A DNA stretch of 64,000 nt. Origin: Marsupella aquatica (taxonomy: Eukaryota > Plantae > Marchantiophyta). The stretch lies in contig OZ316891.1 in assembly GCA_973895155.1 (NCBI GenBank), positions 19,431,048-19,495,047 on the forward strand. Direction: 5' to 3'. The notes below the pieces were generated by a model. That model worked only from the letters and a program-made list of their open reading frames with translations. It did no database searches and was not told where the DNA came from. The position numbers were made by a program, and so were the translations under genes. Shown here in pieces: positions 19,049-58,617 of this stretch. The stretch's first letter is position 1. Every line of letters begins with the position of its first letter.

Positions 19049-20303
19049 TGGATGGTTCCTCCTCGACACGCTTGTTCACTTCCATGATCAATAGGCCCGG
19101 AGCAATGACACCGGGCTCCATCATGTTCGATCCGTTCGGCAAGGGATCGAGATTCTAGTCGATCATCTGTGACAAAGCTCTAACTTGGCTCAACCTTTTT
19201 CTAAATCACAATGAAGAGTGCCATCAATCATCATGATCGATCTAAGAGCGGTAAATCAGCACAAACCTATAGACTGAGATGAAATCCCGTTGTTTGTCAG
19301 TATATCCTCTTCTCCAAAACCAAGGGGAGGAACCACTACTATAGGTGGCAACACATGTAGATCATGGTGGCCAGATCTAATGTATGACAAGACTGCTCCA
19401 GAGCATTACTTTGGATGCTTCATGAGTGCTTCCACTAATTTGGACAGTCAGGTCCTTTTCAGAAGAGGTCACCGAGACAATTTTCAATCTTGAGAAATGT
19501 ACTGGAGTCCATTGAAAAGTGGACATTATGTCATTTGCATTATTTCACAGCTGCCTCAACGATGTGACTTTTTGCTGAGCCTTTTCCATCAGCCCCGGAC
19601 TCTCGGAGGGTGATACGCAACGGCGTTGGTTCATTACCATCTGCCAGAGCCTTTGGTAGCACTGTAAGTCATTGGAGCAGCCGGATCGCTAGAGTGTTGT
19701 TGCATACCCATCTGTAAAAACTCTTCAAAAGCTTTCTCAGATTGTCCACTGCAAGTCAGGGTCACGAATATTTACCTAACCGATCACTTGGGTTGGATGA
19801 GCTGATGAGCACTGCTGTAAGCTCTCCATCGTCCATCGAAAAGTTGGCTTGCTGGACGAGGGACTGTCCACTGGCGGCTCCTAGAGGAGCAATTATTATG
19901 GCCCCAGTGAGTGAGCGCAAAAGGAGGAGGAGAGCCCAATGTTTCCGCGTGCTCGATCTGCACTCTTGATAAATAGCTGCCTCCATTGTTGCAGTTCTCG
20001 TGGCTTGTTTGTCGTTCACGGTCCAATTCTAGCCTTCAATGCTAGAATTCTTTCCATTCGTACACGAGAGGAATGATGTAGAGCCGCAATTACAGTTGCC
20101 AGGGAGCGGTCACCGGTCAGCATTCTCTTCTCATGCTCCTGCTCCGACTGCAGCACTATTAACTTATTGCTCCACAGTCCACACAATGCCGACATTGCAA
20201 CTCGTGCTTCATCATTTCATGAACGCTCGAATGGATTCTCAGTCGACTCGTAAAGAAAGTGACACCCACTTCTTGTAGACTCGAGGTTTCGCTCATATGC
20301 TTC

Positions 20304-20842
20304 GACAGATTTGTAAACCGGGATTGACTGCATCCAACCGTTGATATGCGCTGGGATGACATATGTTACACTACGGATTAGAAAAGAGAGTGTAGCGAAC
20401 GACAGATTTCTAAACCGGGATGGACTGCATCCAACCGTTGATATGCGTTGGGATGACATATGTTACCATAGGGATTAGAAAAAGAGATTGTATAATGATT
20501 CTCCTATTAAGTTACTTCAATTATTTCTAAGTACCTGAGAAAGGAAACATTAATGTATGTAAAAATATAGCGAACGACAGATTTCTAAACCGGGATGTAC
20601 AGCATCCAACCGGATGAAATATGCTACACTAGGGATTAGAAAAGAGAGTGTAGTGAACGACAGATTTCTATACCGATGGACTGCATCCAACCGTTGATAC
20701 GGCTGGGATGAAATATGTTACACTAGGGATTAGAAAAGAGAGTGCAGCAAACGACAGACTTCAAAACCAAGATGGACTGCATCCAACCGTTGATATGTGC
20801 TGAGATGACATATGTTACACTAGAGATTAGAAGAGAGTGTAA
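20304..20842. repeat. Tandem repeat, about 97-bp unit, 5 diverged copies, one interrupted by an AT-rich insert
   Basis: Unit GACAGATTTCTAAACCGGGATGGACTGCATCCAACCGTTGATATGCG(C/T)TGGGATGACATATGTTACACTAGGGATTAGAAAAGAGAGTGTAGCGAAC starts near 20304, 20401, 20576, 20659 and 20753. Confidence 0.92.
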
Positions 20843-22873
20843 AGTGAAGTTTAAGTGGTGATAATGGAGAGGTATATGCTTGATAGACCCCTTAGCTGGA
20901 AAACCTGGTGTGATGGCCCATGAAACATTAGTTAGAGTTTGTCAGATGTTCTTGTGATAATTCTTGTAAAGTGCATCCCTTCATTGTAGACCTGGAACTT
21001 GTTACATGGTAGATTTATGGGAGAAACTATGGTGAAATGTTATCGCAGTGACAAGGATCCATGCCTTTTCGCTACCCAGTGATGAAATGCTGAAAGTCTA
21101 GGGAAGGCTGAAATTGTGATTTCTGTTGTAAAATTCAAACTCAAAGTGAAGGCACTATAGGTAATTCTTCTGGAAAAAAAAATTCAAATGCTGGGGGAGA
21201 AACATCTCATTCAATGTCTATCACAAGGTTTTGATTGTGTCCGAGCATTGAGATGTGCAGGATAACATGTTTTACACTGATGATTAAAAATTAATTGTGT
21301 GAACCAAAGTTTGAGCACTCAACTATTCAACACCCACTTTAACTACTTGAAAAGGGTATCAAATGGGAATTTTTAGCATCTCTATATTGCTCAATTCCAA
21401 TTGCATTTGAGAAAGTTATGAGTGCCAAAAGTAAGCTTGGTTAGGCAGCCAGTCTGACCTTGTTTTCATGTTCTTGTGACTGTAAAGTGGATGAGGTTCA
21501 TCTTAATTGAATGATCTAGGGGCAAAGTCCATCTTGGACTCCACTGTACTTATAATCGCAACATAGCAGAGTACTCTAAAAAAGTGAGCAGTAAGCTTTG
21601 ATGGGGTCTCAATCCACACCTGCTTAGAAGGGATTTCTAAGCTTGCATCTGAATTTTGACTGGGATAATACAACTTTGGAATAAAATAGCTACACTTTCC
21701 TTCTAATAACAGTTGTGGTTCCAATCGGATGTCGTACAAATACACATCTATACACAACTACAGTAACCCTTGTTGCTCAGCATCTAACTGATGCAAACTA
21801 AAAATTATCAACACCTCAGAACCAAATGCACAAAGTAGTCCATACTATGCATTCATGGAACCTTTGCAGTCTGCCTCCTCCGTTGAGCAAAGCCCACCCC
21901 CTGGCCATTCGAGACTCCAGGCCTACAGACACAACAAAACCCTGCCAAAAATACTAAATGTTCACATGCCAACCCACATCACTCCGCAACTTAGAAAATT
22001 AAGGAGCCATTCTCCTCTCCTCAAAGGTACACCCCTCCCATGGCACCTGAAGTGGTAACCTGCATGCATTGTCACTCAAACCCAGGTGACCACTACTAGC
22101 AGTGGGTGACCTGGATTCTTTTGAGACCCAAGTTTGTGGTCTCAATTTTTTCTTGGCGTGGTTTGCTGGGGTTCCCTGGTGCTGCTGCAGATCATGCATG
22201 GGTACCCGCCCCCGCCGCCCCCCCCCCCCCCCCCCCTGGTCTACCTTTGTCTTGGTCCATCTTGCAGGTGCTGGCATTTGTGGCTTCTTGCTGGGTAATA
22301 ATTAGGGGTCTAGTTAGAGACTCTTGTAATTCTGAAAATTCAGGGAAAAATCCATGTCATCTCATAAATTCTTAACCATTGGATCTGTGTAATTGGACCA
22401 TCTAGATTCTTATCATGTGTGAGCACTTGTGTGAACAGTTAAGTGGGACAAAAGTATCACTTCAATTCTCAGCCATTGGATGTTTATGATTGGAGCATCT
22501 AGATGCTTTGCATGTGGGAACACATGTGGGACAAAAATGGGAACTAATGTCAGATTGCATTAGATAATGTCCATGCATTCATGTCATGCCAAAATAGATG
22601 CATGTCTCCCATTTTGCTTAACCATACCATGCCAAAGTGAATGAGTGCAATTAACTTTCCCCCCATTCCACGCCTCCACATCTATTCTCCACCAAATCAT
22701 CATCATCAAACACTACAGTACAAGTTCCCCCCCCCCTCCTAAATCCCCCTTTTTTCTTTAACTTTTGTCCTTTATAAAATGAGGAAGGAGTGTGGGTAAA
22801 TCGTAGCACTTCATCAAAACATAAACTTTTTTGGTGCCATCAGATCCACCAAGACACTCCTCTCACTACACGA

Positions 22874-25192: not shown

Positions 25193-26169
25193 CAACCCAC
25201 CCAGAAATGGCGGACCAGAACACATGGCTGCAGGTTTTAATTTTACAAGGCTCGGTGGGAATCAGGATAAAAGAACTAGTCACCCAAAAGTGGGGTACCA
25301 GAGCTCTTGAGGTTTTAGTTTATCCGGGCTCGGTGAGGATCGAAAAACTTGATTTCTGGGCAGTAGTAGTTCCCAGGCATTCCTCGCTACCGGTGCGAAT
25401 GCTATTAGTGAGAGTAACACTAATTGTGGTGAACTTCGTACATTCGTGATGGATGCTGCCTCAGTTGACGTAATTGAGTGAGATTTTACAATGCAGAAAG
25501 ACGGGATAATTTCGTCACTAGACAATGTCGAAGCAGTCCTTGGTAGGCAGGTCAAAGTCACCAGGAATCCTACTACTGAAACGACCAGATACGCGAATCA
25601 GGAGTGCAATTGATGAAGTTACAAACACGAGGCCAGCATTCCGATTTCCCATATCAGCTTCACTGACAATGACTCGCCGCAAAACGTCAATCTATTGGAA
25701 TTTCCCTCACCTTCAACTGTACATGTCTACAAAAAATGTCAATCTACAGAACTACGACGATTATGCTACAGATTCGTTTGGTCGAACAGTGGAGCCCCAA
25801 CGGGCACGATATCTGAAAGTGCCTGTTGTAAAATTGGAGAGGAGTCTGGAGGATGTCCACGAAGTGTGGAGAAACGGAGATATTCGTGCTGGAGTAGGAT
25901 TCGAACGTGAGCCGATGGAATCCAGGCCGTGGCACTCGATTTGTCAGGTAATGCATCCTTCACGACGGACGACACGAAGTTTTCTGGAAAAGAATCAGCT
26001 CCTCAAACATGGCTACTTCGAAAATTGAAACACCGTGTTGAAGAGCTTCATCCGTGGATTGCAGAGCATAAATTCCGCTTCATCAAACTCAATTCGAAAA
26101 CCCGTTTCCAGTCACATTGGTAAGAATTGCCCGCTCGAGGCTGTTGGCCAATACACAACTCCAACGTCC

Positions 26170-26805
26170 TCACTTTCTCATTGTGTACGTCCCCGAAATC
26201 TTGAGATTCCCCTCTAATTTTGAAAACAGAAACTTCAAGCCGTTGCTGAGCTCTAAAGTTGCACCGTAACGCAAACCCTTGACAAAGCTACGGTCCCCGA
26301 AGACTTCCTCCAACTCTTCATTTGAGAGAAGAAGTTTCAGCTGCTTTGGTCCCGACGAGGCCTTCTGAAAGAGCTCGTCGCCAACCAACGCCTCGATAAC
26401 GAGTTCTGTGATGCCAAAAACCTCGACTGGAACCAACCGTGCTGAGCCACATCTTGCGCTGGGCTTGTATGCCATTTGATTGAAGACCTGTGACTGAATT
26501 GACCTTTTGAGCTGTCGAACCTGCTCCATAAGTGGCGTCGATGTCGACGATGTTAAGGGATGAGCAGCTCCTGCGGGACTAGAGGCTGCCTGCTTCTTGG
26601 CTGACTTGAGCTTGCGTTGCAGTTCTGCTAATTGCGCGTCCTTCTTACTCAATTGCTCCTCTTTCTCAATCAACATCATCTTGAGCTCCTGGACATCGTC
26701 GCAAGATTCCCAGGGCCGCACGCGCTTGGTACTCAAATTACCAGATGCACATGACCACCCTTGCCTAGACATGGTGGCTATCTCGTCGTCCCCGGAACTC
26801 GACAT
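26170..26805 (-). CDS. Uncharacterised protein (about 211 aa): N-terminal coiled coil, A/S/P linker, compact C-terminal alpha/beta domain; CDS has no intron
   Basis: Open 636-bp frame with protein-like composition (ELKMMLIEKEEQLSKKDAQLAELQRKLK coiled coil). A TTTTTCAG acceptor lies just upstream of the ATG (about 26817) and a CAG|GTGAAG donor near 27029, suggesting a spliced 5' UTR. Confidence 0.7.
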   Translation of the reverse strand: MSSSGDDEIATMSRQGWSCASGNLSTKRVRPWESCDDVQELKMMLIEKEEQLSKKDAQLAELQRKLKSAKKQAASSPAGAAHPLTSSTSTPLMEQVRQLKRSIQSQVFNQMAYKPSARCGSARLVPVEVFGITELVIEALVGDELFQKASSGPKQLKLLLSNEELEEVFGDRSFVKGLRYGATLELSNGLKFLFSKLEGNLKISGTYTMRK

Positions 26806-27510
26806 AGAAGCTCGACCTGAAAAACTCACACACAAAAGCAGATCAAGCTATGAACTCCCAAGCGAATGGAAAGACTAAATAAACAACACCGTCACCAGCT
26901 CGACGCCTCCAAAGCAGCATTCTGCGAGGGAATCAGGAAACCCAAAATTCGCCATAGTTCAGAAAATCGATAGCGATCAGCGGCATGAGCAACAGAGAAT
27001 CAATGCAAAACGCAGGTGAGTTCCTTCACCTGAATCGAAGAGCAATTTCCCTCGCCAGAATTCACCAAAACTTCGAGTCGCTTCTCCCAGAACAACCTAC
27101 AGACTGCTCTGCTCTCCTTCACGTACTAGTGAAGTGAAGTTCTGTACACAATGAGGATGCGAAAGACCGCCATGACTCAAAAGAGAGGAACCACAGGATC
27201 AGCACAGGATCGGAAGCGAAGGTCGATTCCCTGGCGGACTCTTTGAATTCTCCCAATTTGAAAATCTTGGCGCGGCCGGGGCTTCAGCCATTCAAAGAGG
27301 TGTAGGATAGGAGCGGCCTACCGTAGTGCGGGGTGAGGTTAGTAGCCGCGCTCTTTTTTTAGGTGCGAATTTTAGCCAAATTCCATCTCCCCAAAAAGTG
27401 TTCGACACTTTTGGCGAAAACTCGCTAGAATGCTAGATCGTGTGTGTGTCATTCCTAGTAATCACGGTCTTGGTTTCAGGTTACCTGCGTGTAACCTATT
27501 TTGGGGGTCC

Positions 27511-27578
27511 CTTGTATTCCCGTAATCTGCCTTCCTGACACATCTTGTATTCCCGTAATCTGCCTTCCTGACACATCT
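27511..27578. repeat. Exact 33-bp tandem duplication
   Basis: CTTGTATTCCCGTAATCTGCCTTCCTGACACAT occurs twice. Confidence 0.9.
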
Positions 27579-28940
27579 GACGGTTTGGAACTCTGTAACC
27601 TGGCTACGGAATCCCATAATGCACCTACAGAACCCATAACTACCAGATGGAAAATTAGTATTTCATCCACCTTAAACTTAGGGCCACTTTACAAGACGGG
27701 CGCGGCAATTTGAGTGTTTTCTACCAGGGCTGTGACAGAGCCCAACTTTAGTGGTACGGTAGGACTCTAGACCAATCCAAGGCAGGAATCCTAGGAGGAA
27801 GCGGGCTGCCCATTTTCGCCCTCCGGAGGTCCGATAGTCTAGCGCCCGGATGAGAGTCCCAAGCCGGCTGGCCCGAGCTGATCCATACCAGAATGCAGGT
27901 TCGGTTATTCCCGCAGCTCAACTTGCCGCGCCACTCTTCTAAAGCAAGGAGCGCCCGGGCAGGCTGAAACAACGGTTGTGATTGATTCGATCATGAAAAA
28001 AGAGGGACTAAATTGCCACGCCCGTCTTGTAAAGTGGCCCTTATTCCGTCCAAAACACATTTTCCATCCATACGTGGGTCCATACGTGTACATTCAATTG
28101 GCATATTCCATCCTTCAGAATAGGTTCGGAATAGGCTTCTGTCAACAAGGGGTTTCAGAATAGGGTATGATTTGATGTTTCAGCTTTGTGTATGCTGAGT
28201 TCACACTCGTAAAACTTTTATTCACTTTTAGTATTGAACCCGAATAGTGATTTGGAAGAAGTAAAGTACTCAAAAAATTCCACTTATTCAAGGGAGTCAT
28301 GCAAAGTTTAACCGAATAGTAAAACCATTCTTGCTGTACATAGGTGTGCTGATTCAGCCGATACAGCCATATCAGTAAATTCCTGATATGTACAATGTTT
28401 TGACTTACTGTTATTTCCTGCTAATGCTACTTTACTGAAATATCTGAAAACTAAGTAAAATATCACTAACTAAAATATCACAGGCCTGCGTCCTCCTTCT
28501 CATCCTCCCCTGCCTTGACAATTTTAATTGATACTGAACAATTGTGGAAGGAGTTTCCAGATATGTTGCTGCCCACAGAAACTCTGGCTGGTGGTGGGCC
28601 TGAATTCTCTCATGAAGCAAAGGGTTCTGCTTCAACAACTCGCCCACCCAATCAATTCTGTCATAGGACGAATCCCATCTGGCAGCATCTGTTCTTTGTA
28701 ATAACATATCCCCAACAACGTGGCTTCCTTCCACACACAAAACAAACATTAATCTCAGTCTTGCTAGACAGGCAACAACCGAAAGTTGAAACAGGTAGAA
28801 ACAAACCTGCTGTGAAGCTCTTGCTGATGTTTCTCCTAGTACTCCACTCAAACCGGTACATCCCTCCCAACCAACAAAATTGCCATTAGCAACAATACCA
28901 AGAAACTCACTCACAAACAAATCAAAGTTTATGAACATAC

Positions 28941-30869
28941 CTGTACAAGTGTCATGAGTGAAGGTTGCACATTAGCCTTTTCGTTCACCCTGTCAACAAG
29001 GGGTTTCAGACCCTCGGATGATCCAACAAGCTTCTCCTGGACAATAGACTTCGAAACATATCCAAGAGCCTTCTCATAATCAAGGCCTGGACTAGCAGAG
29101 ACCAGGGCTACAGCCTCCATCTTAAGTTCTTGAGTTCTGTCGTAACGAGAATAACCTCCGGTTGAATGATGCCCACTAATCAGCATACCAACCACATTAG
29201 GGACTCCTTTTGCAGCTAGTCGAGAGATTAGTGTGGTCCTTCCAGTTCGGTTGGAAAAAAGATTAGGGGGCAGCCCCACCAGCGCCAAATATTCTTAAGC
29301 CAATGAGCAGCAGTATCTCTCCCTACCTTGTGGACTTTGTTATACCAGACATTCCCGGCAGGATTGGTAATCGCCTGCATAAAGAGGTCAGGCTTTGACG
29401 ACTCTGCTTTTGGAGATAAATGGCGTTTGTACTGATTAACAGTCAGCACAAAATCAACTTCGTAACTATGATACATCTTTCTAAACTGCTCTTCGTTGTA
29501 TCGATCCAGCGTGTAAGAGTTATTCTTACTTTGGCGCTCCTCGAACCTGAACAAATTCAAATGTTTATTAGTATTACTGGCACACAAGAAACAGATACAA
29601 CAAAGTTACATCTCATAAACATAAATATCACCTGAACAGAAAACACTTACTGCACATAGCTTCTTCCTGCCTTGTCAATGCATACAGATAAGTCGCCTCT
29701 ATGGAGGTCATAGAGCTCGCCGCCTCCACGAATGCCAAGCCTGACCAGATAGTAAAATGCCAAGCACTTTTGACATCCGTGACTGCTTGTCACTTGGTGG
29801 TCAATGTCAGCCATAATAGCGTTCTCGTGCTCCTCTGTCAATATCTCAACCTGGATCAGTTAAACATCCAAAAGTCAGAAGCAGCAGAATAGATCTACAA
29901 GCACACGACATCTTTAAAGGCAATGCAAGCTGACAACTCTCACCTTCTTTCGTTTCTTGTTAGCCCCCTCCCTCGCAGACTTCTTGATGGCAGCTTTCAG
30001 CACCATTCGAGTTCTTGAGAAGGCCGGATGTGAGTTGATGTTGAAATCTCTCGGCAGAATGTAAGAAGAGCCCTTCAACGATCTCAGATCACTCCCTCGC
30101 CTCAACACTCGATTGAAGCTATTCATTTGGTTCATGAGTGAAGATGATGGGTAAACATTACCGTCTTTCTTCACTGCTCGAGCAAAATAGTTGCTGAGCA
30201 ACTCGTCCACTTGCACAAGTGACAAGTCTCCAAATGCAATACTCAAGTCCCACCCCATCCCCTTCCGCAACCCGTTTGCCCTCCTAACAGCCCATTAATC
30301 ATTCCGTTCGGACGGCAACTTCTCCAGTCCTCGGCCTGCTTCCTCTAAAGTAGGATCAGGTAGGAGTCTCAAGCCTGGCAGGCTTACTTCCACGTCTAGA
30401 TCTTGCCTCAAGGCGGACGAACTTGCAGCCGCTTGATCCAAATGGTTCTGCTCAATAACCTGCAGCCCACTTTCAACCTCATTGACAAGCTCTCGATCAG
30501 GCTCGACCAAAGTAGACAAAACATCCAAAGAAACAGCTTCTATAGATGCCTCGTCAAATGCAGTGGCCGAATCAAACTCTGAAAGGTCACAAGTCTCCCC
30601 ACCAACACTCAAATCATCCATATAAAACATCTCCCTCTCGGCGTCTGAATAATCGCCAGGAACAACTTCATCGCTTAACTCTCCCTCCATCTTCATACGA
30701 GCTACTTCACAGATCACTCCGAACGACACAAGTTGCTCAGTCGCTACAGCCATTTGACTACTCAACATCCGCAGCAATGCATAAGTACTACAACTCAACA
30801 ACAAGCAATCGAACGATATAACGACGCTCCACTTCAATGCTGCATTTGCTTCCACCCCGCTATCCATGA
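28941..30869 (-). pseudogene. Crypton-like (DUF3504-type) tyrosine recombinase, spliced, with one in-frame stop and one frameshift
   Basis: Exons about 30753-29944, 29850-29651 and 29546-28941 are joined by GT-AG introns (AAG|GTGAGA, CA|GTAAGT, CAG|GTATGT). The product reads WAVRR..., VDELLSNYF....KKDGNVYPSSSL, F...R.VL....K.....G, GCQKCLAFY....LGIRGGGELYDL...D, FEERQSKN, WY....VG, FSNRTGRTT.ISRL...GVP.....ISGHHS..GY..YD, i.e. the YR catalytic R, K, xxxR, H and Y. There is a TAA at 30295-30297 and a 1-nt frameshift at about 29288. Confidence 0.82.
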
Positions 30870-31346
30870 TCTGCAAACAATGCATGGCGCATGCAAAAAT
30901 TCAAAACAAAACAGAACTGAAAATGTAAGGCTCCCCCTGGTCGCAACACAGTCGCGTTTGGTTTGAAACCAGCTCAAACATGCCGCGCTCCATCCCGCCA
31001 CCATCTCCAAGCTTTCACCACCACCATCGCCATTGCATTGCCTCGCCCCGCCGGATCGTGCAGCGCTTTGCTGCAGTCTGTAGTCTCCGAGCTCGGCCTT
31101 GCCCCGCCGGATCGCGCAGCGCTTCGCTGCCTCCCAGCTCTGCCTCGTTCAACATCGTGACGAAACAGCCGCAGCCCGCCTGATTTGCAGAATACCCCCT
31201 CCCACCTTCGCTACGATCAAATTGACGGTCCCGATACAATGTCTCTTCGATCCAATGACCTAGAATGTTTTAACCTTCATGAGCCGGTGAACCTGAAACA
31301 TAGATCGCGATTATGTACATTAACGACGATCCAGGCCATCCATTAC

Positions 31347-31678
31347 TGTTGAACTAAGACGTCATTCGCAACGACCATACAACCATGACTCATTCCATGC
31401 ACACGTAGTCGACACAATCTCTACGTGGTTCACCTCTTCTCCAAGGCTACGTCCACACGAACACTCAAGCTTTACTTCAAGAGTAGACGAACACACATGC
31501 TCTCTCTCTTCCTCCTGTTGTTCTGTTACAATGAGTAAGCACCACCCACCAGCGGCTTACACTAGCCCTGGTATATACAAGGTCACACACGACTAATCTA
31601 ACCTCAGCTAAGATCCTAACTGTGGTTAGCCTAAGTGCCGTAACCTATGAGTCACAAGACTAAGAGCAATCCTTAACA
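31347..31678 (-). mobile_element. Solo LTR (332 bp, Copia-like) with 5-bp TSD ATTAC
   Basis: Termini are TGTTG...TAACA, and ATTAC flanks both sides (31342-31346, 31679-31683). The reverse complement is homologous to the solo LTR at 52185-52528, sharing GTGGACGTAGCC and GAGGTGAACCACGTA. Confidence 0.9.
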
Positions 31679-38976: not shown

Positions 38977-40898
38977 TTTTTTTTTGCCTCGAAAGAACCA
39001 AATGAATTCCATTCAAATAGCCAACATACAAAAAAGGGGGCCCACAAAGGGCACCAACCCAAGGGACCGGAGGTCAGCGTGCAGAAACCGGTGGGGCCGG
39101 GACCAAGGAGAAAGCTGAGCCCATAAGGGGCAACTAAACAAGTAATTTAGAAACTACAGTCGGAGCAGCACACTCCTAAAGACCGGCCAGTGACCAGGTT
39201 CCGGCGGGGTTCCTGCCAGTGGATCCGTGCGGGAGCAGAGCTCCAAACAGTCAGTCTGCAGTGCAACTTCCTAACCTGAACAACCAAAGTGACTCATGGT
39301 GGTCGTGGAGGTACTGGTGGGACTTGAAGGGATTTCTCATGTAGTTCCCAAAGGCCAGCCCAGGTGCCATATTGAAACGCCATCTCGTTGTGCGCCTCCC
39401 TTGAAGTGATCTTTCCAGCCTGGATACGAACTTTAATCCGGCCCCAATCACGACATAGGTAGATTCCGAGTCGATGCCAAGATTTTCTGATAACTCCTTG
39501 TGGGTGGGGTCGGGTGTGTTCAATGAAGTGGGTACTTCTGTCCTTCCACAAGTTCCAGCAGATAATAGCCCTTAAGGTATGCCACAGTTTCATGGGGACG
39601 TCCCAATGCTCCGGTAGGGGCTCCCCGACAAAAATGTGGACTGGCTGTAGGTGAATAAGATTCCCCCTAGAACAGGCACATAGCTGTAGCACAAAATGAA
39701 CCCACCTCCAGACTATCTGCGAGTGATTGCAGCTCCAAATGCAGTGAAGGATATCTTCCTGTTGGTTAGTGCCACACCGGGTGCACCAGGTGGCCGGATT
39801 GGTTGATGGTAGTCTCGGGAACCTCCAGTGCTGTGTTGCAGGTATCCTGTAAATCAGTTGCCACAAATAGCAATTCTCGCTAGCAGCTCGGAAAGGTAGC
39901 CATGTATCAGCCCAGAGCGTCCGTGGGTGGGGCTGCCAATTCAATCTGATGGCCCATTTGTGAATGGCTTTGTGGAGTGTTTCATTGAGTGGCGCCTGAA
40001 TTTCACGTAAGTGGGTGGTGTTAGTTTCCAGAAAGGAGAGTCCGTCCTTCCATTCGTGCTGCAACAAAGGTGCCAACAATCCATGTGGCCTTCCAACGCG
40101 GTGCATGTTGTTGGGAGCTCGGTTGCCGTTCCTGGTCAACACCCGGTGCAAGATCACAAGGCCAAAAGGCCAAGGGGGCCTTGGACTCATTTCAGTTGCA
40201 GCGCAATTCAGAGCACTGGCTGGGAACTTCATTATTTGGGCACTGTCTGGAGGAGATCACCCCCTACGTCGAATTCTCCAGCATGAGATCAAGCAGCTTT
40301 CTAAGCGGAAATGGGGAGTGGAAGATTATACCTGGGTCTTTTTGCAGTGCCACACTCTTCCACTGAATGGGTCCAAAGTGTGGACCAATGTATGCACAGG
40401 GTGGAACGTCATCAAGAAAAATCTGAGAGCTACATCTCCTGCGCATCTGGAAGGATGGAGTGACCTTCCCCTTTGGCAACCACACATTAACCACATCCAC
40501 GCAAATCAAGCCAAATGTCGGAGCAATCCATAGAGGAAAATCAGGAGGGCTGGCTTTGTTGCCATGAGAGACGTCTTGGATGGGAGGGGGCAATTCATCA
40601 ACTGGGAGGATGGACCTAACGCTATGCTTCCCCCAAATTGCTCCTCTGCGTATCCCCAAATTGCTCCTCTGCGTATAGTAAGTTAATTGCTAACCTTCGT
40701 ACTGTGCCTGAGCTACACAGGAATCCTGGGAACTCGTCCCTATCTTCATGGAGGCCCGACTGCCATGTGGGACTCTTTACATCTGGGAATACCAGGTACC
40801 CAGACACCGCATTACGTCCCAATGGCAGTGGTTCAATGACATTGCTCACCCCAGACGTACCTTTAGGGTGGTCAATGACACTCTTTGCAAATTGGATA
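38977..40898 (-). mobile_element. 5'-truncated, 5'-inverted L1-type LINE with poly(A) and a 16-bp TSD
   Basis: CCCCACCTCCATTTTC is duplicated at 38961-38976 and 40899-40914, followed by T9 at 38977-38985 (poly-A on -). The minus segment (about 40150-39294) encodes the ORF2 C-terminus (zf-RVT CTRC...EDILHCIWSC, WNLWKDR, VPPVPPRPP*). The plus segment (about 40147-40898) encodes the immediately upstream part of ORF2 (PKGQGGLGL, W..V..GW, PLW). Confidence 0.92.
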
Positions 40899-43800
40899 CC
40901 CCACCTCCATTTTCCATTCACAAATAAACATGCATGCTCCGCCACATAGATGGCAAACGGTAGGAAGTTGAAAGGACTTGATCCGCAACCCAGAAATCCA
41001 GAATGCTTTGAGAAATATGTAAGTCATGAAAGTGGAATCTTAGAATACGATGGTGCGAGCTTAACGAATTGAAATTTCTCTCTCGTCACAGGCTCACATG
41101 TTAGGTGATCGAATTTGTCTCACAGAAGAGCGCGGAAATAGTTTTCCCTCCAATCTTGACAAGCTCCTAGTCTCGTGAACATTCGAGTTTTCCGTGCAAT
41201 CAGGAAACATGTGTGTCGATCGGGACACTCATTAAAAAATCGTCGACTCCCATTGTGCTATCGAAGCTGTGGACGACGAATGACCTCGGTTCTAGTGTAG
41301 GACCTTGATCGAGATTGTCAGCCCTGCTTTGACAGGTCGCGGGGGATGGCTTACAAGTTGGTCTGGCAAGAATTTGGGCGCAAGCTCATGATTGAAGACT
41401 TCCTCGATGACTTGAGTCTTCGACTGTACGTTGACTGAATTCAGCGTTGCGCAAGATACATTCCTCTCCTCGAACTTCCATGGTTACAAGATATGAGCGC
41501 AATCATCCCTGGCTGATCTACTGTACTCCCTAGATCACTGGCAGTGATGAGAGGTAGTACTTGGACGATTTCGTCATAATCGATTGAGGCTTTACCCTGA
41601 CAGTGTATACTGTGGGCGAATGATTGCACGGCTGGATCAGCTGGAAAGGAGTTTTGACGTTGCGTCGATGACACCATGAGAAACTGCTGAAGTCTCGGAT
41701 TCAAGTAATCAATCAGCCTTTCAATCCATAAAAAGGTCAACAAAAGGACGTTGTATCAGATTGATGTAAAGTTATCCAGAAACGTGATGTTTTCCGTTCT
41801 GATTTCAGAGATTCCTACGTTTTAAACAACTGTTACTCGGCGACAGGTCACTTTATGCCTGAGCTGCAATTGATAATAGCAGGTTTCGACTGTCCCAGCT
41901 CAACAGAAAACTGGAACACTGTTATGCCTCACTGCAGCAATGGAAATGAAGAGCCAATGGACCAGTTTCAGTGTACAGGTAGGCATGATTGGCAGACTTC
42001 TATCCAGGCATCCTCGATCTATGATAGGATTCACAAGCAGCACTAGCAAGCAGTTTTGAGAGCTCTCCAATTCCACAAGGCAAGTCTCGTAGTATTGAGA
42101 TTGTGACTTGATAATTGAGAGAACCCTCAATCTTACTCCTTGATCTCTCGTCCATATTCATATCTTTAGGAACTACAATGAACAGCAGCTTGTCGCACGC
42201 TGCAAACCGTCTGGCAAGCGGCCAGAATAGCTTTTAGAATAAATCTGCTGCTGCAGACTTTTCTCCGTAGCCACTTCCAGCGATTGATCTTTCAATTGAT
42301 CTTCCAACCAAAACAATTGATCAGTTGTATTGTGTCTGCAGAGAACCCTGCCACTAGGTCTAGAGATCTAATTGAGAGGTTTGGAATGAGGCCACTGAAG
42401 ATGAGGGGCGATAAATTTTACCTCATCTTTGGAGACCCCCTGACGTACATCATCTTTGCAGCTAGCGAGTTCTCTTTCTCGGCTATGAAGAAGCGGCATC
42501 CTCACGGTGACGCCAAGATCATGGTCAAACCCAGTTTCTTGGGACACACGCGCATCGAATTGACACGCCATTCGAACAGTGGGATTCAAGTGCTCTTACC
42601 ATGTTAAGCCATAGGTTCTGATAGACAAGATTTTGGTGTTGGAGGATTTCATCTGTCTCCTGGGAAATTTGTCGCGAGTACTCTTTCTCCGCATTTCCAA
42701 GTAGTTTTCAAGCTGACCCGATGTTTTCCAGGGTTGACCCACTTCGTCATGGCCCTTGTCATCTGCGGGGTCCTCCAGACTCGTCACTTCGCAGAACTGT
42801 ATCATGTTCATGCTCAAGCGAAGGCCGGAGGAGAGCCTTCCATCCTTAGTCCGTAGTCGAGCCATGCATTTGCAACATCGCTGCCCGAACGCAATGTGCG
42901 GTGACTACCCGAGTTGTGCAGGTAGGTGATGCCAGAGCAGAGCATAGGCTTGTCAACCACGTGGAATGAATTTGCTCCTGTACAGTGATTGCGGACTTCT
43001 GTTTGGCTGATACCTGTCTCACGTCTGTCTGCTCACCGGTATCGTCTCCTTTACGTCTGTCTTGCTTTAAAAATAGACGCGGACCGAGCTCATCTTTTAT
43101 TCCTCCAAGTAGATATGAACATTTGTTCTAGGAGGTCTCTTCAAAGCAAACGCAAAACTGTAACCATTGAAGTTTTCTCAATCCGAGTACCAGGAATAGT
43201 GGTCGTAAAGATACCGTAAAACTCCTTTAAAGGCAACCACACAAGCTTACGGCAGCAGGCGAGAGCGAATCCGTCCCTCGACGTCATTTGCCAGAAAAAG
43301 TGTTAGATCAAGCGTAAACTTCTTAGATAGATCCTCGCACACTTGAAATTGGGTAAAATAAAGAGGAAAACTTGAAAACCAACACTTTACAGTGCTAAAT
43401 CAATTTGAACGCCATCCAAAAATTTCGGACCTGCTTTAGCTTGCAACGTGAGCACGAAACTCTTAAAGAGTGTCAAAGGAGACGCTCCGTCAGCCTAGTC
43501 TATAATGAATCTTGCTGATCCAAGTCGAACAAACTAGATCTTGAAATTCGCACCTAAAGTTAACAATAAAGTACTGATCATGCAGGAAGGAGAAAAAGCG
43601 CGCCGTCGATCCAAAGGGAGCCTGTAGCTCTGCGCCAGTGGGGTCAGAGAGCTTAGCCTCACGAGCGGTTGCTCTGCGTTGCGAACAAAATTCCGACACT
43701 TTCTCTGTCCGCTTTCCATTGGAGAGGAAAAATGTACGAGGAAACTTCTCTCATAGTTCTTGGTAACATGGGGATGAAAGCTCGTCTTCTGCGTAGACGT

Positions 43801-52528: not shown

Positions 52529-53147
52529 ATTAGTCCATTCCAATTGTACCGTTTTTGTCTAGGGTCCATGGGAGCATCATTTTCTCTCTTGCAGCCCCTT
52601 AATTTCTCTTGTTTGAACCTGCCTCCTCCTCCCAGGCAGGGGTCCTTGTTGTCCCCTTTGGAAAAAATTGAAATAAAATCATTTAAAAATAATAATAATT
52701 ATGAAAAAAATTTGAACTTAAATTTTAGTGACAAACAGAAAAAATAAAATCACTTCACAAATTTAGGCACAGCACGTGATGCAACAAGAGGGCCGATGAT
52801 CCCACCCAACAAGAGGAGGATGGTCAGTCGACCACGGCTCAAACCCCGTTGGCGTAATCGAAGTCATGTTGAGTCAATTCTTCTCCTCACACTTTCAAGG
52901 CCTCTCCTCAGTGTGCACCCACTGTACAGTGAAATTCGGAGCATGAAGGACGCACCTCCCCTTCCTCCTTCATCCCCCTCTCGCTCTCTCTTTCTCTCTC
53001 TTTACCTCTCTCTTTCTGATCTGTGATGGAGATGACGATGAAGACGATGAAGACGACGAGCATCAGGGACGCGAAATTGCGGAGAGCGTCATGAATCGAC
53101 GGCGTCGTGCGAGGACGATTTCTGGTAAGATTTCTGGCTCACGCCAC

Positions 53148-53785
53148 GCTAGCCCTGATGTCAATGTTTTACCCGTCATTGATTGATTGATGCTCGTGCA
53201 CTTTATTTGTTCGCGGGAAGCGTATCGATTGTTCAAATGGATGCGTTTGCGATCCTTTCGATTTGAGAGGACTGGTACTGTAGGTAGAGAATGAGCTAGC
53301 GAGGGATCGGATGGAAATTCTTGTGGAGGTTTTTGGCTGGATCTAAAGCTGGCTTTGATGTCAATGTTTTCCCTGTCGTTGATTGATTGATGCTCGTGCA
53401 CATTGCCTGTTTGCCGGAAGCGTATCGATTGATCGAATGGATGCGTTTACATTCGTGAGAGGACTGGTACTGTCGGTAGAGAATGAGCTAGCGAGGGATC
53501 GGATGAAATTTCTTGTATAGATTTTTGGCTGGATCTAACGCTAGCTTTGATGTCAATGCTTTCCCTGACGTTGATTAATTGACGCTCGTGCACATTGCCT
53601 GTTTGCCGAAGCGTATCGATTGATCGAATGGCTGCGTTTGCGATCGTGAGAGGTACTGCAGTTAGTAAAATGAGCTAGCGAGAGGATGAAAATTCTTGTA
53701 GAGGTTTTTGGCTGGATCTAATGGAGTGAAACTGTCGTCTGTTCCTCCGCGCTAGCCCTGATGTCAATGTTTTCCCTGTCATCGA
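53148..53785. repeat. Tandem repeat, about 190-200-bp unit, about 3.2 copies, inside the putative 5'-UTR intron of the DQD/SDH gene
   Basis: GCTAGC..TGATGTCAATGTTTT.CC.GTC.TTGATT.ATTGA.GCTCGTGCAC...GAAGCGTATCGATTG...GAGCTAGCGAG...TTTTTGGCTGGATCTAA starts near 53148, 53348, 53540 and 53750. A CTG|GTAAGA donor lies near 53124 and a TGCTGCAG acceptor near 54015. Confidence 0.88.
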
Positions 53786-54139
53786 TCCGCTTTGAAATGT
53801 CCATTTGTGCTTTGCCTTCGTTGGAATTTGGCTGTGCACTGCTTTTTGTCTCTCTTGAAAATCGTGACATGGAGAATGCATTCTCCATTTCTGCAGCTTT
53901 TGCTCCAGCGAGAGGATCTTTCCTATGTGTTGAAATTTCTGTCACACTATTGAGTGTTTTCTGTCTTTCTGTTCAAAATCTCCTTATTGAATGAGAGTCA
54001 TGGATTGTGCTGCAGAGAACTCGGGCTAAACGGTTGCCAGTCGGAAGAGAGCAAACTGAGTGGTGTAAAGTTTGCCCATCACGCACCTGAACAGAAATTG
54101 AAGAAGGACAAGAAATAGAAGAAGAGTGAGTTTCTAAGG

Positions 54140-55687
54140 ATGGCGAGCACGACGCTCCTGTGTGCGCCACTGGTAGCAAAATCAGTGGATGAGATGGTAG
54201 AGAAGATAGGGCAGGCGAAAACTGCCGGCGCGGATCTTGTCGAGCTTCGGGTGGACTGGATCACAGGCTTCAACGCCGAGAGCGATCTCCCGATCCTGCT
54301 CAATGCTAGGACCTTGCCAGCCATTGTCACTTACCGGCCGAAGTGGGAGGGAGGAGAGTACGAAGGAGACGAAGCGCCTCGCCTGGCTGCGCTTCACTTG
54401 GCAGCCGACCTCGGAGCTGATTACGTAGACGTAGAGCTCCAAGTCGCAACGAAATTCATCGATTCTCGCAAGGAAAGGAAATCAGGAGGAAAAAGTGGAA
54501 CGAAATTCATCGTATCCAACCATAATTATGAATTCACGCCTTCCGAGGAAGAAATGGGAGCGCTCGCTGCCAAGTGCGTGACTGCTGGAGCTGACATCGT
54601 GAAACTTGTCACAACAGCCCAAAACATCACTGACGTTGTGAGGATGTTGCAGCTGATGACACGGTCCTCAGTTCCGATCATCACGCTGGTTATGGGGAAC
54701 AAAGGGGTGATTAGCAGGATCCTTGCGCCAAAATTCGGTGGGTATCTAACGTTCGGAACTCTTGCCAAAGGTCAAGAGAGTGCTCCGGGACAGCCTACTT
54801 TGGAGGAGCTGATCAAAGTGTACAGGGTGAAGCAAATTGGAAGAGACACAAAAGTGTATGGCATTGCTGGCAATCCAGTGGGGCACAGCAAGGGCCCAAC
54901 CCTCCACAATAAAGCCTTTGCAGAGAAAGGGATCAATGCCGTTTATGTCCCGTACTTAGTCGATGATCTTCCATCCTTCTTGAAAGTGTTCGAGTCCAGT
55001 GATTTCGTTGGGTTCAGTGTTACCATACCCCACAAGGAGGCAGCTGCCGCGGCAGCTGATGAAGTGGAAAGTCTTGCTAAACAGATAGGGGCTGTGAATA
55101 CATTAGTGAGGACGAAAGACATGAAATTGACGGGTTACAACACTGATTGTGTTGGAGCTTTAAGCGCCATAGAAGATGGCTTACGAGGAGTCCACCTGCA
55201 GGGAAGTGAGGAATCACCTTTGCAAGGAAAGACGTTTGTGGTTATTGGTGCAGGTGGAGCTGGTAAGGCTCTAGCTTTTGGAGCGCATGTACGGGGGGCT
55301 AAAGTCATCATCGCCAACCGAACCATTGCAAGAGCTCAAACATTAGCCGAGCAGATCGGGGCAAATGCGGAGGCAATTACGTTGGCACAACTTGAAGAAT
55401 TGAAGGCCACGAAGGGATTTGTCCTGGCCAACACTTCTTCTGTTGGTATGCAACCGAATGTCCATGAAAGCCCTCTGTCGAGAGAGGCACTGAAAGGTTA
55501 TGAGCTCGTCTTTGATGCCGTTTACACACCAAGAGTGACACGGTTACTCCGCGAGGCAGGCGAGTGGGGAGCTGCGACTGTCAGCGGTATAGAGATGTTC
55601 ATTGGGCAGGCCATTCTTCAGTTTGAACTGTTCACTGGTGGACCTGCCCCAATTCAGCTGATGAGAGAACTCATAGAGACATTCTAA
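54140..55687 (+). CDS. Bifunctional type I 3-dehydroquinate dehydratase / shikimate (or quinate) dehydrogenase (DQD/SDH), intronless CDS, 515 aa
   Basis: The DQD domain has GADLVELRVD, TYRPKWEGGEY, DYVDVEL, VSNHNY, GADIVKLVT, ISRILAPKFGGYLTFG and SAPGQPT. The SDH domain has GNPVGHSKGP.LHN, GFSVTIPHKE, IGAVNTL, GYNTD, Rossmann GAGGAGKA, ANRT, NTSSVGM.P, VFDAVYTP..TRLLREA and G.EMFIGQA..QFELFTG. Confidence 0.96.
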   Translation: MASTTLLCAPLVAKSVDEMVEKIGQAKTAGADLVELRVDWITGFNAESDLPILLNARTLPAIVTYRPKWEGGEYEGDEAPRLAALHLAADLGADYVDVELQVATKFIDSRKERKSGGKSGTKFIVSNHNYEFTPSEEEMGALAAKCVTAGADIVKLVTTAQNITDVVRMLQLMTRSSVPIITLVMGNKGVISRILAPKFGGYLTFGTLAKGQESAPGQPTLEELIKVYRVKQIGRDTKVYGIAGNPVGHSKGPTLHNKAFAEKGINAVYVPYLVDDLPSFLKVFESSDFVGFSVTIPHKEAAAAAADEVESLAKQIGAVNTLVRTKDMKLTGYNTDCVGALSAIEDGLRGVHLQGSEESPLQGKTFVVIGAGGAGKALAFGAHVRGAKVIIANRTIARAQTLAEQIGANAEAITLAQLEELKATKGFVLANTSSVGMQPNVHESPLSREALKGYELVFDAVYTPRVTRLLREAGEWGAATVSGIEMFIGQAILQFELFTGGPAPIQLMRELIETF

Positions 55688-57192: not shown

Positions 57193-58617
57193 TTAGCATA
57201 TGGAACCTTTCCCTCTCGAGGATTCCCTCTGAATCGTGTCAAACTTTGACGAATGTCTTCGATTACTACACAGACCAAGTTTTCTCTTACAACAATAATA
57301 GCACACACCGTTAGAACAGTATCTAGATTTACGATACGTACACGAGGCCGTTGGGCAGGGAAAACCGTTGTCGGAGGAGGTCCGTTTGGGAGAGGATGGC
57401 CTGTGAAGAAGGGATTGGGATCCGTGTCTATCCAGCAATGGGGAGGATGGTGCACTTCCCAATATACCATCGTTGACAGAAGGTCTGTTTGGAAATGGAG
57501 ACAAATGTCTGCCTAAAGAAGTAGAGGAATGTCTATTTGGGAAAGGAGACACCGGTCTGCCCAACGACGGAGAGGAAGGTCTGTTTGAAAAAGGAGAGAG
57601 CGGTCTGCCCAAGGAGGGAGAGGAAGGTCTGTTGAGCGAAGATGATGCGCCTAAACCATTCCTGTCATACGGTCTGCCTGAAAAGGGAGGCACTGGTCTA
57701 CCCAAAGGCGGAGAGGAAGGTCTGTTTGGAACAGGAGATGCTGGTCTCCTCAACGACGGAGAGCAAGGTCTGTTTGGAAAAGGAGACACCGGTCTACCCA
57801 ATGACGCAGAGGAAGGTGTATTGAGCGATGACGTGCTTTTGCCTTTACGACTGTGTGGTCTTTTGCTCGTGGCACCTGCTCCGTTACAAACTGAGATGGT
57901 GATAGGAGCTTGTAGGCTTACAGACTGTGTTAAATTCCGGAGCCCTGATTGAGATCTACTGCTGCCTCCTTGGAGTTTCAGAACACTCGATATATTCTGA
58001 GCTTCACAAGGCTGCTGCTTATGGGCATCACGGTCGGAAGGAAACAGTACATGCGCGGGTTTAAACCACTGCCGGTGATTATTTATAGAAATGGTCGCAC
58101 CTCCACTCGGATCCCCATTTTCAGAAGGTAACCCGAATTGTCGGATTCTTCCAAGTGGTACAGTATTGGCACCAGTTTGGGTGTGATGATGCACCACTCT
58201 CGCTTCGTTGATTTCCCCATTTTCAGCAGGTAACCCGAATTGTCGGATTCTTCCAAGCGGTACAGTATTGGCACCAGTTTGGGTGTGATAATGCACCACT
58301 CTTGCTTTGTTGCTTTCCACACTTTCAGAATGTAAGCCGAATTGTCGTATTTTTCCAAGCGGTACAGAATTGGCACCAGTTTGGGTGTGATGACGCACCA
58401 CTCTTGCTTCGTTGATTTCCACAGTTTCAGAATGTAAGCCGAATTGTCGGATTCTTCCAAGCGGTACAGAATTGGCACCAGTTGGGGCGTGAGGTCGGGT
58501 CCCAACTGCTGCGAGTTGGTGACCAGAGACAGCTGACTGAAATACGTTTCCACTATTGCTGGACTCTTTTGATGCCAAGGTGTCGGTGTAAGGATTCGCT
58601 AGCTGTGTCCTTGACAC
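57193..58617 (-). CDS. Large exon or ORF (474 aa) of a repeat-rich protein: 34-aa repeats, 16-aa Ser/Pro repeats and a C-terminal Cys/His zinc-finger-like motif
   Basis: The reading frame is open for 1.4 kb and a TTGCAG acceptor lies near 58637. The repeats preserve frame (102-bp and 48-bp units). The motif is CPTASC-x7-C-x4-C-x2-CC-x6-C-x4-H. Confidence 0.55.
   Translation of the reverse strand: MSRTQLANPYTDTLASKESSNSGNVFQSAVSGHQLAAVGTRPHAPTGANSVPLGRIRQFGLHSETVEINEARVVRHHTQTGANSVPLGKIRQFGLHSESVESNKARVVHYHTQTGANTVPLGRIRQFGLPAENGEINEARVVHHHTQTGANTVPLGRIRQFGLPSENGDPSGGATISINNHRQWFKPAHVLFPSDRDAHKQQPCEAQNISSVLKLQGGSSRSQSGLRNLTQSVSLQAPITISVCNGAGATSKRPHSRKGKSTSSLNTPSSASLGRPVSPFPNRPCSPSLRRPASPVPNRPSSPPLGRPVPPFSGRPYDRNGLGASSSLNRPSSPSLGRPLSPFSNRPSSPSLGRPVSPFPNRHSSTSLGRHLSPFPNRPSVNDGILGSAPSSPLLDRHGSQSLLHRPSSPKRTSSDNGFPCPTASCTYRKSRYCSNGVCYYCCKRKLGLCSNRRHSSKFDTIQRESSRGKGSIC
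57476..57825 (-). repeat. Coding minisatellite, 48-bp (16-aa) unit NRPSSPSLGRPVSPFP, about 6-7 copies
   Basis: GGAGAGGAAGGTCTGTTTGGAAAAGGAGACACCGGTCT.CCCAA recurs on the + strand. Confidence 0.88.
58114..58482 (-). repeat. Coding tandem repeat, 102-bp (34-aa) unit, about 3.6 copies
   Basis: GAATTGTCG.AT...TCCAAG.GGTACAG.ATTGGCACCAGTT recurs at 102-bp spacing (about 58135, 58237, 58339, 58441). Confidence 0.92.

Follow-up and report, generated by a model that had tools for sequence, protein, structure and literature searches.

A decayed, intron-bearing gene for a predicted tyrosine recombinase, probably of Crypton type, in the liverwort Marsupella aquatica

The 64,000-nucleotide stretch of Marsupella aquatica DNA analysed here (the window) carries a dead, decayed gene on its minus strand between 28.4 and 30.9 kb. 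The gene has introns and many diverged copies, and is predicted to encode a tyrosine recombinase (YR), probably that of a Crypton-type DNA transposon of non-seed land plants. An under-described plant YR family had been proposed at this locus by the original prediction, and fold, kinship to DUF3504 and CryptonA, plant setting and multiple copies all hold. Cryptons would thereby be extended to land plants, where Pfam-based annotation misses them.

The gene comprises four exons from 30867 to 28478, with its motifs spread over three reading frames. Exon 1 (29944..30867) encodes an acidic, poorly ordered N-terminus followed by a predicted Cre-like N-terminal helical (DNA-clamp) domain with the motif LLSNYF..KKDG..YPSSSL, and exon 2 (29651..29850) contains FYYLVRLGIRGGGELYDLHRGD and supplies the catalytic Arg I and Glu (GIRGGGEL). 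In exon 3 (28941..29546) FEERQSKN and WYNKVHKVG are found in the first part and SNRTGR and SGHHSTGGYSRY in the second; this exon provides the catalytic Lys (SKN), an R-x-x-R replacing H-x-x-R, the His (SGH) and the Tyr (YSRY). Every Crypton/DUF3504 core motif quoted in the original prediction of an intron-containing gene is thus present on the minus strand and in the order claimed. Both introns reported there are genuine as well, namely intron 1 (29851..29943; 93 nt, GT..AG, phase 0) and intron 2 (29547..29650; 104 nt, GT..AG, phase 2), since the Calypogeia fissa proteins P0002 and P0003 are contiguous exactly across each of them in tblastn. In contigs of public sequencing runs the exons align between copies and contig joints skip and replace each intron (29852-29926 in intron 1, where other copies carry different sequence; 29549-29643 and similar in intron 2).

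Of the gene extent given earlier, 28941..30869, the three-exon part stands and the end at 28941 does not, since the GT donor (28940) of a third intron lies there and a fourth exon follows beyond it. Intron 3 (28732..28940) is about 209 nt long and its acceptor is damaged by a 4-nt loss. Exon 4 (28478..28731), absent from the earlier reading, encodes a disordered tail ending VSVGSN..FHNCSVSIKIV.. with the stop at 28480-28478, and 28582-28487 matches the C-terminal tail of the Calypogeia proteins (tblastn, E 0.003-0.005). Its start was placed at 28731 because diverged contigs cease aligning at 28732 and near-identical contigs hold 4 extra bases there. The start codon of the gene is uncertain: similarity to P0003 starts near 30747, and the close fragment P0054 starts at a Met near 30690. 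A Cys-rich frame at 28885-28664, considered as a zinc finger, was rejected as an off-frame reading of intron 3 and exon 4.

Two disabling lesions had been described; both are real, but the gene has at least four. These are a premature TAA at 30297-30295 in exon 1, where P0003 has Lys, a one-base frameshift near 29288 in exon 3, where P0002 and P0003 stay in one frame, a loss of 4 nt at the intron-3 acceptor as judged by near-identical contigs, and a second frame change near 28600 in exon 4. The frameshift at 29288 is missing from three contigs of run X2, which make up all depth there, and from three contigs of run X4 among the matches listed, and in one diverged contig exon 4 is longer by 7 nt, as would fit an open frame at that place.

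Exons 1-3 share 57% identity over 470 aa with P0003 of the leafy liverwort Calypogeia fissa. When the unbroken exon-3 frame served as query, two proteins were retrieved, P0002 and P0003 (58-60% identity), and the word-based search with the exon 1-2 read-through gave no homologs among 1401 candidates. HMMER returned 561 relatives at E<=0.001 from 1.84 billion representatives. In Pfam, single exon frames of the gene gave nothing relevant, and neither the window pieces nor P0002 or P0003 matched DUF3504 or Phage_integrase. The DUF3504 cut-off is passed by 15 of the 30 long relatives scanned, all of them distant ones, and the closer, plant-side group reaches at best 24 bits against a cut-off of 29.7. 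A profile of the close group nevertheless aligns to a DUF3504-passing protein with a probability of 99.8 (E 1e-27), gapless across the catalytic box, and in the Atlas residues 200-560 of P0003 adjoin DUF3504/Phage_integrase clusters (0.98; TM 0.82), consistent with CryptonA kinship. The proposed relation to DUF3504 therefore holds by profile-profile comparison and Atlas, but fails at the curated cut-off of the Pfam family (PF12012).

AlphaFold models P0003 with confidence from about residue 190 to 575, and 338 of its 711 residues reach pLDDT >=90; against its relatives P0003 shows a one-residue gap near the core. Among solved structures the model matches Cre best, and does so across both domains (Foldseek E 6.7e-7; VIA Z 19.1, rmsd 3.9, 301 aligned), whereby the predicted tyrosine-recombinase fold is supported, the fold of the window protein being taken from this 57% identical homolog. 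Querying solved structures by sequence, whether with the exon-3 frame, with P0003 or with the plant profile, yielded nothing significant; the best integrase appeared at E 0.26.

In the profile alignment the window protein reads R, E, K, R, R, H and Y at the seven catalytic columns, with Arg I, Lys, Arg II, His/Trp and the Tyr nucleophile all present. The HxxR His is replaced by Arg both in the window and in P0003, a change on which the original prediction, quoting SN.TGR, had made no remark. Among the plant-side rows (133, mostly fragments) 63 cover this column and 70 do not; the 63 contain Lys in 49 cases, Arg in 8, other residues in 6 and His in none, whereas on the far, DUF3504-passing side His is kept in 18 of 23 rows. 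As read from the alignment, the predicted catalytic set of the plant-side family is R-K-[K/R]xxR-H-Y instead of R-K-HxxR-H-Y. Besides the window and P0003, seven further core proteins have R/E/K/R/H/Y intact; the expectation of intact relatives is thus borne out for the catalytic core, but no complete intact copy was seen within the subfamily of the window.

In Cre all but five substitutions of His289 recombine, Lys and Arg being among the five inactive ones, and H289K and H289R show no detectable activity (Gibb et al., PMC2943603). The available part of the same article gives the HxxR His as about 87% conserved in tyrosine recombinases and not strictly required, and describes Lys220 of poxvirus topoisomerase IB, located three residues ahead of the second Arg and turned to the next phosphate. 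Like this Lys220, the extra basic residue of the plant proteins would likely touch the adjacent phosphate. Because the remaining catalytic residues are kept across liverworts, mosses and ferns, we infer that the plant lineage reshaped its active site in the manner of a topoisomerase. The family offers a natural test of a question left by Cre mutagenesis, namely tyrosine recombinase function with Lys or Arg at the His289 position.

The neighbours of the gene are of plant type: the window encodes GH3, two DUF247 proteins, a MATH protein and a bifunctional DHQ-SDH; among solved structures the last is matched best by 2gpt (E 7e-185), a two-domain enzyme of Arabidopsis. The nearest named relative of the gene is from a liverwort (Calypogeia), and the nearest relatives are located on Calypogeia contigs of 12-27 Mb and on fern chromosomes. 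These neighbours and the relatives on plant contigs speak for a plant origin and against the non-plant or chimeric contig which had been considered at the outset. Thirteen among 20 hand-picked representatives (150 listed) bear a species name, and all 13 are from non-seed land plants, namely Adiantum (4), Calypogeia, Marchantia, Diphasiastrum, Selaginella (2), Riccia (3) and Ceratodon; in the profile search 6 of 17 matches were named, all Calypogeia or Adiantum. Narrow pattern scans gave 97 and 161 matches in JGI metagenome contigs and 38 in IMG/VR, none confirmed as relatives, and show no absence.

A tree of the core with 49 rows splits the window and 16-17 named plant rows (liverworts, a moss, ferns and lycophytes on this side) from 14 DUF3504-passing rows by a 100/100 branch, and the window groups with P0003 and two other rows at 100/99; a 70-row quick tree agrees. 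For these trees fragments covering less than 60% of the core were dropped (98 proteins kept), followed by near-duplicates (70 rows) and 21 hand-picked rows (49 rows). The 49-row tree is unrooted, contains no named Repbase reference, identified Glomhopper or outgroup, has unnamed far rows and is silent on the direction of any transfer. Intron content varies within the plant group (P0006, P0014, P0007, P0010, P0018), some members reading through the intron-1 site and some being called as one long frame, and intronless forms likely exist. P0012 (Adiantum GOP47_0016747) has annotated PPR repeats in addition to the Crypton core and may be a gene-model fusion.

Four public sequencing runs contain 61-70% of the words of the stretch. 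Their contigs were aligned at 80% likeness, and the comparison rests on runs X1, X4 and X2, with X5 (small share, mostly partial matches) and X6 left out. At base 29750 in exon 2 the contigs differing from the window number 12 (X1), 13 (X4) and 5 (X2). Diverged contigs also span non-coding sequence at 28095-28350 and 31003-31310, and the repeated unit covers at least 28095-31310. The non-coding regions common to diverged copies are 28045..28477 on the 3' side (pieces 28095-28350 and 28103-28346, with 34-35 differences) and 30868..31310 on the 5' side (31003-31310 with 45 differences, 31018-31235 with 25). With many diverged contigs per exon position and common non-coding flanks, the locus is multicopy, as had been expected, and not a single-copy gene. 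Summed contig depth over the exons is several-fold above that of the unique flanks, a sum which is not a copy number, and two runs appear to contain two versions of the flanks. Contigs less than 90% alike amount to 94 of 249 (X1) and 104 of 262 (X4), about 40%, and with so many diverged copies the family must be old. Sub-lineages diverge within single genomes, Calypogeia being found in two clades and Riccia and Adiantum with several loci each, and most relatives are fragments or broken.

The repeated unit is bracketed by a 24-bp imperfect inverted repeat as candidate element ends, with the left arm at 27459..27482 and the right arm at 31290..31313 (20/24 match), which would delimit a candidate element of 3855 bp including a nested high-copy MITE. 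It attains a local score of 35, the highest of 500 shuffles being 34, in windows chosen after the repeat was seen, and blastn over the window gives E 0.12-0.21. Around the arms there is no direct repeat of 4-6 bp beyond TA, the run contigs revealed no empty site, and no end-to-end circle joint occurs among the contig joints listed, in a compared stretch that stopped short of the left arm; searching for the outer right flank past the repeat at 27355 gave no match. An exact 21-nt direct repeat connects the 3' non-coding region (28139-28159) with exon 3 (28990-29010), at a chance of about 3e-5 in 7 kb, and has a heptamer in common with both arms. This heptamer, present 6 times in 27459-31313 against 1.0 expected, was given no weight as a signal, being chosen post hoc with sites that are not independent.

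Further repeats surround the gene. The nested MITE (27681..28040) has inverted ends of 32 nt and is flanked by TTA at either end, features by which we take it to be PIF/Harbinger-like, and one contig joins 27677 to 28042 across it. A very high-copy, solo-LTR-like repeat with TG..CA ends and a 5-bp target duplication (ATTAC) occupies 31347-31678, 33 bp past the right arm. From 27355 to about 27430 a high-copy repeat end with a hairpin and CTAG, and with varied upstream sequence in 40-44 contigs, looks like a Helitron 3' end. The frames 26170-26847 (minus strand, 225 aa, with a coiled-coil stretch) and 25522-26028 (plus strand, 168 aa) belong to no Pfam family, and contigs related to them occur in runs X1, X4 and X5. 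At 39294-41023 (minus strand), 8 kb off and unrelated to the Crypton gene, a decayed LINE-like ORF2 tail was recognized by eye, the two frames scanned giving no Pfam match. Dispersed or tandem repeat arrays are found at 20253-20866 (about 97 nt), 53144-53786 (190-200), 57463-57831 (189) and 58112-58492 (102), the last two in or beside a 491-aa Ser/Pro-rich frame. The DHQ-SDH gene (54140-55687, plus strand) consists of one unbroken, intronless frame of 515 codons and is possibly a retrocopy; seed-plant DHQ-SDH genes have many introns. Rfam gave 0 matches in 24-36 kb.

In agreement with the original prediction, RT, gag and RNase H were not detected around the gene: none of the 37 other frames of >=75 aa within 19.5-39.2 kb matches a Pfam family at E<=0.001, a scan which short decayed pieces could escape. 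Because the gene has introns and no RT lies nearby, a DNA route of transposition is favored. By analogy with Cre and the Crypton circle model of Goodwin et al., as given in PMC3212892 and PMC13465315, we infer end use, circle and activity of the element as follows. The gene would likely be the sole gene of an element of roughly 3.3-3.9 kb, its spliced protein of about 650-700 aa binding short end sites with the N-terminal helical clamp and the catalytic domain. Four subunits would synapse the two ends, and the Tyr would cut single strands in turn, via a 3'-phosphotyrosine and a Holliday junction. The element would then exit as a DNA circle and re-insert through reversal of these steps, no true target duplication being formed. 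An active member would constitute a plant-derived site-specific recombinase, as proposed in the original prediction, and would have to reckon with Lys/Arg at a His position where both inactivate Cre.

Several relatives have lost catalytic residues altogether. Mp5g04240 of Marchantia polymorpha (P0029), labelled as DUF3504-containing in UniRef, is 95% identical to Mapa_012797 of M. paleacea (P0158) and lost the SGH box. The Selaginella (two genes, annotated isoforms) and Diphasiastrum proteins lost Arg I, Lys and the entire C-terminal box, but retain the remainder of the module (profile probability 100, E 4e-48); P0063 and P0078 share 46% identity over 736 columns. These lycophyte fusions (P0063, P0070, P0078, P0185; Diphasiastrum O6H91_21G046100, Selaginella LOC9657615 and LOC9653486, and a Logan protein) consist of a PAXX-like head, a coiled coil and the dead Crypton module, truncated at its C-terminus. 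A sequence profile relates residues 1-190 to Arabidopsis PAXX (8p26; E 3e-12), the low-confidence model of the head (mean pLDDT 41.6) matches the same structure (Foldseek E 9.7e-7, Z 11.2), and in the Atlas the head falls to XRCC4/XLF/PAXX clusters at 0.81-0.86. Through the PAXX-like head, a transposon DNA-binding module could become linked to end joining. Because the dead relatives are conserved yet lack catalytic residues, their sequences suggest that they are domesticated genes, and Mp5g04240, LOC9653486 and LOC9657615 are candidates in tractable models. The Marchantia and lycophyte genes are united as long branches, with a warning, in the quick tree, and their union is unstarred at 92/84 in the careful tree; for these reasons one shared domestication is not claimed.

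These conserved dead relatives are also what a non-mobile host family of DNA-binding proteins derived from Cryptons, or of topoisomerase-like nicking enzymes, would predict, with the window copy as its pseudogene. Such a family, which we consider unlikely, would further agree with the introns of the gene, with exons that are kept far better than introns among copies, and with the change of His to Lys/Arg that kills Cre (PMC2943603). However, nearly all plant-side rows with coverage retain the other five catalytic positions, which were lost in the likely domesticated genes; relatives are mostly fragmentary or broken, the non-coding flanks on both sides are repeated along with the gene, and the locus lies amid nested repeats.

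Quite improbable is a gene that served as the integrase for some larger element, be it a DIRS-like retroelement, an endogenous virus or a composite transposon, whose other genes were lost or are distant. It draws on ends that are not fixed and on a candidate inverted repeat unlike described Crypton ends, as no terminal repeats are reported for animal Cryptons in the available text of Kojima and Jurka (PMC3212892). Against it stand the 37 of 37 neighbouring frames without a Pfam family, a depth at flank level left of about 27100 with other repeats beginning at 27355 and 31347, and the three spliceosomal introns, which argue against an RNA intermediate; IMG/VR, in its narrow and hence weak scan, contributed no confirmed relative. 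Fungal or other non-plant DNA joined into the assembly, e.g. Glomhopper of a symbiont, is suggested by DUF3504 Cryptons described from Glomeromycota, which inhabit bryophyte thalli (PMC13465315, in the part available), but is largely refuted and highly improbable given the closest relatives on Calypogeia contigs and fern chromosomes, the GH3, DUF247, MATH and plant-type DHQ-SDH genes, the window-identical element and unique-flank pieces in the same runs at similar contig depth, and the position of named plant rows and window together on one side of the 100/100 branch.

Within the preferred reading of a Crypton-type transposon, a more far-reaching picture, offered tentatively and with slightly less than even confidence, is that of an ancient Crypton lineage of non-seed land plants with short terminal inverted sites, some catalytically whole members and a topoisomerase-IB-like site that carries Lys/Arg at a position where Cre requires His or a small residue. 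It may have been domesticated at least twice (Marchantia Mp5g04240; the lycophyte PAXX-like fusion, from Selaginella to Diphasiastrum), in parallel to KCTD1/ZMYM/QRICH1.

In the accessible text of Kojima and Jurka (PMC3212892) Cryptons are listed from animals, fungi and stramenopiles, along with one green-algal mitochondrial DUF3504 protein. A land-plant Crypton was not found in the literature searched, nor in the available portions of PMC12130899, PMC10288648, PMC11630846, PMC6681497, PMC3537659, PMC8969392 and PMC12310939; an entry in Repbase or Dfam may exist.

Unlike DIRS, Ngaro and VIPER retroelements, the locus has no linked RT or RNase H that could be found, and its YR gene has introns. 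Compared with Cre of phage P1, identity is 12-15%, the His289 position is occupied by Lys/Arg and the Trp315 position by His, and the ends of the protein are long and disordered. The animal domesticated DUF3504 genes (KCTD1, KIAA1958, ZMYM2-4, QRICH1, WOC) parallel the dead plant relatives, with catalytic residues lost and domains gained, and the QRICH1 chain 9hjt_H matches the P0003 model with Z 11.9; the lycophyte genes carry a PAXX-like head where the animal genes have BTB or zinc fingers, and the window copy, in contrast to the animal genes, retains its catalytic residues and is broken rather than conserved. Glomhopper, a fungal CryptonA subfamily (Krysinska, Barua and Muszewska 2026, PMC13465315), likewise has a DUF3504-related YR, repeat-rich surroundings, unclear boundaries and both intron-bearing and intronless forms. 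As compared by its description in the part of that article available, it differs in that it belongs to Glomeromycota, retains the His and is said to nest in animal CryptonA.

The closest known system is CryptonA of animals (Kojima and Jurka 2011, PMC3212892, as far as available), with which the plant family shares a single YR gene that is accompanied by neither GCR1_C nor RT, homology of the N-terminal and catalytic domains, retention of R, K, R, H and Y, and ends that are hard to define. The termini of CryptonF/S are described as short direct repeats of 4-6 bp without TIR, with none reported for animal Cryptons, in contrast to the candidate 24-bp inverted repeat found here. The plant family differs from CryptonA furthermore in its land-plant host, its three introns, its 100/100 branch apart from all DUF3504-passing rows, and Lys/Arg at the HxxR His (57 of 63 rows, compared with His in 18 of 23). 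Since it lies under the Pfam DUF3504 cut-off, lacks the HxxR His and forms a branch of its own, the plant family, which would work like CryptonA, should not be filed as CryptonA proper.
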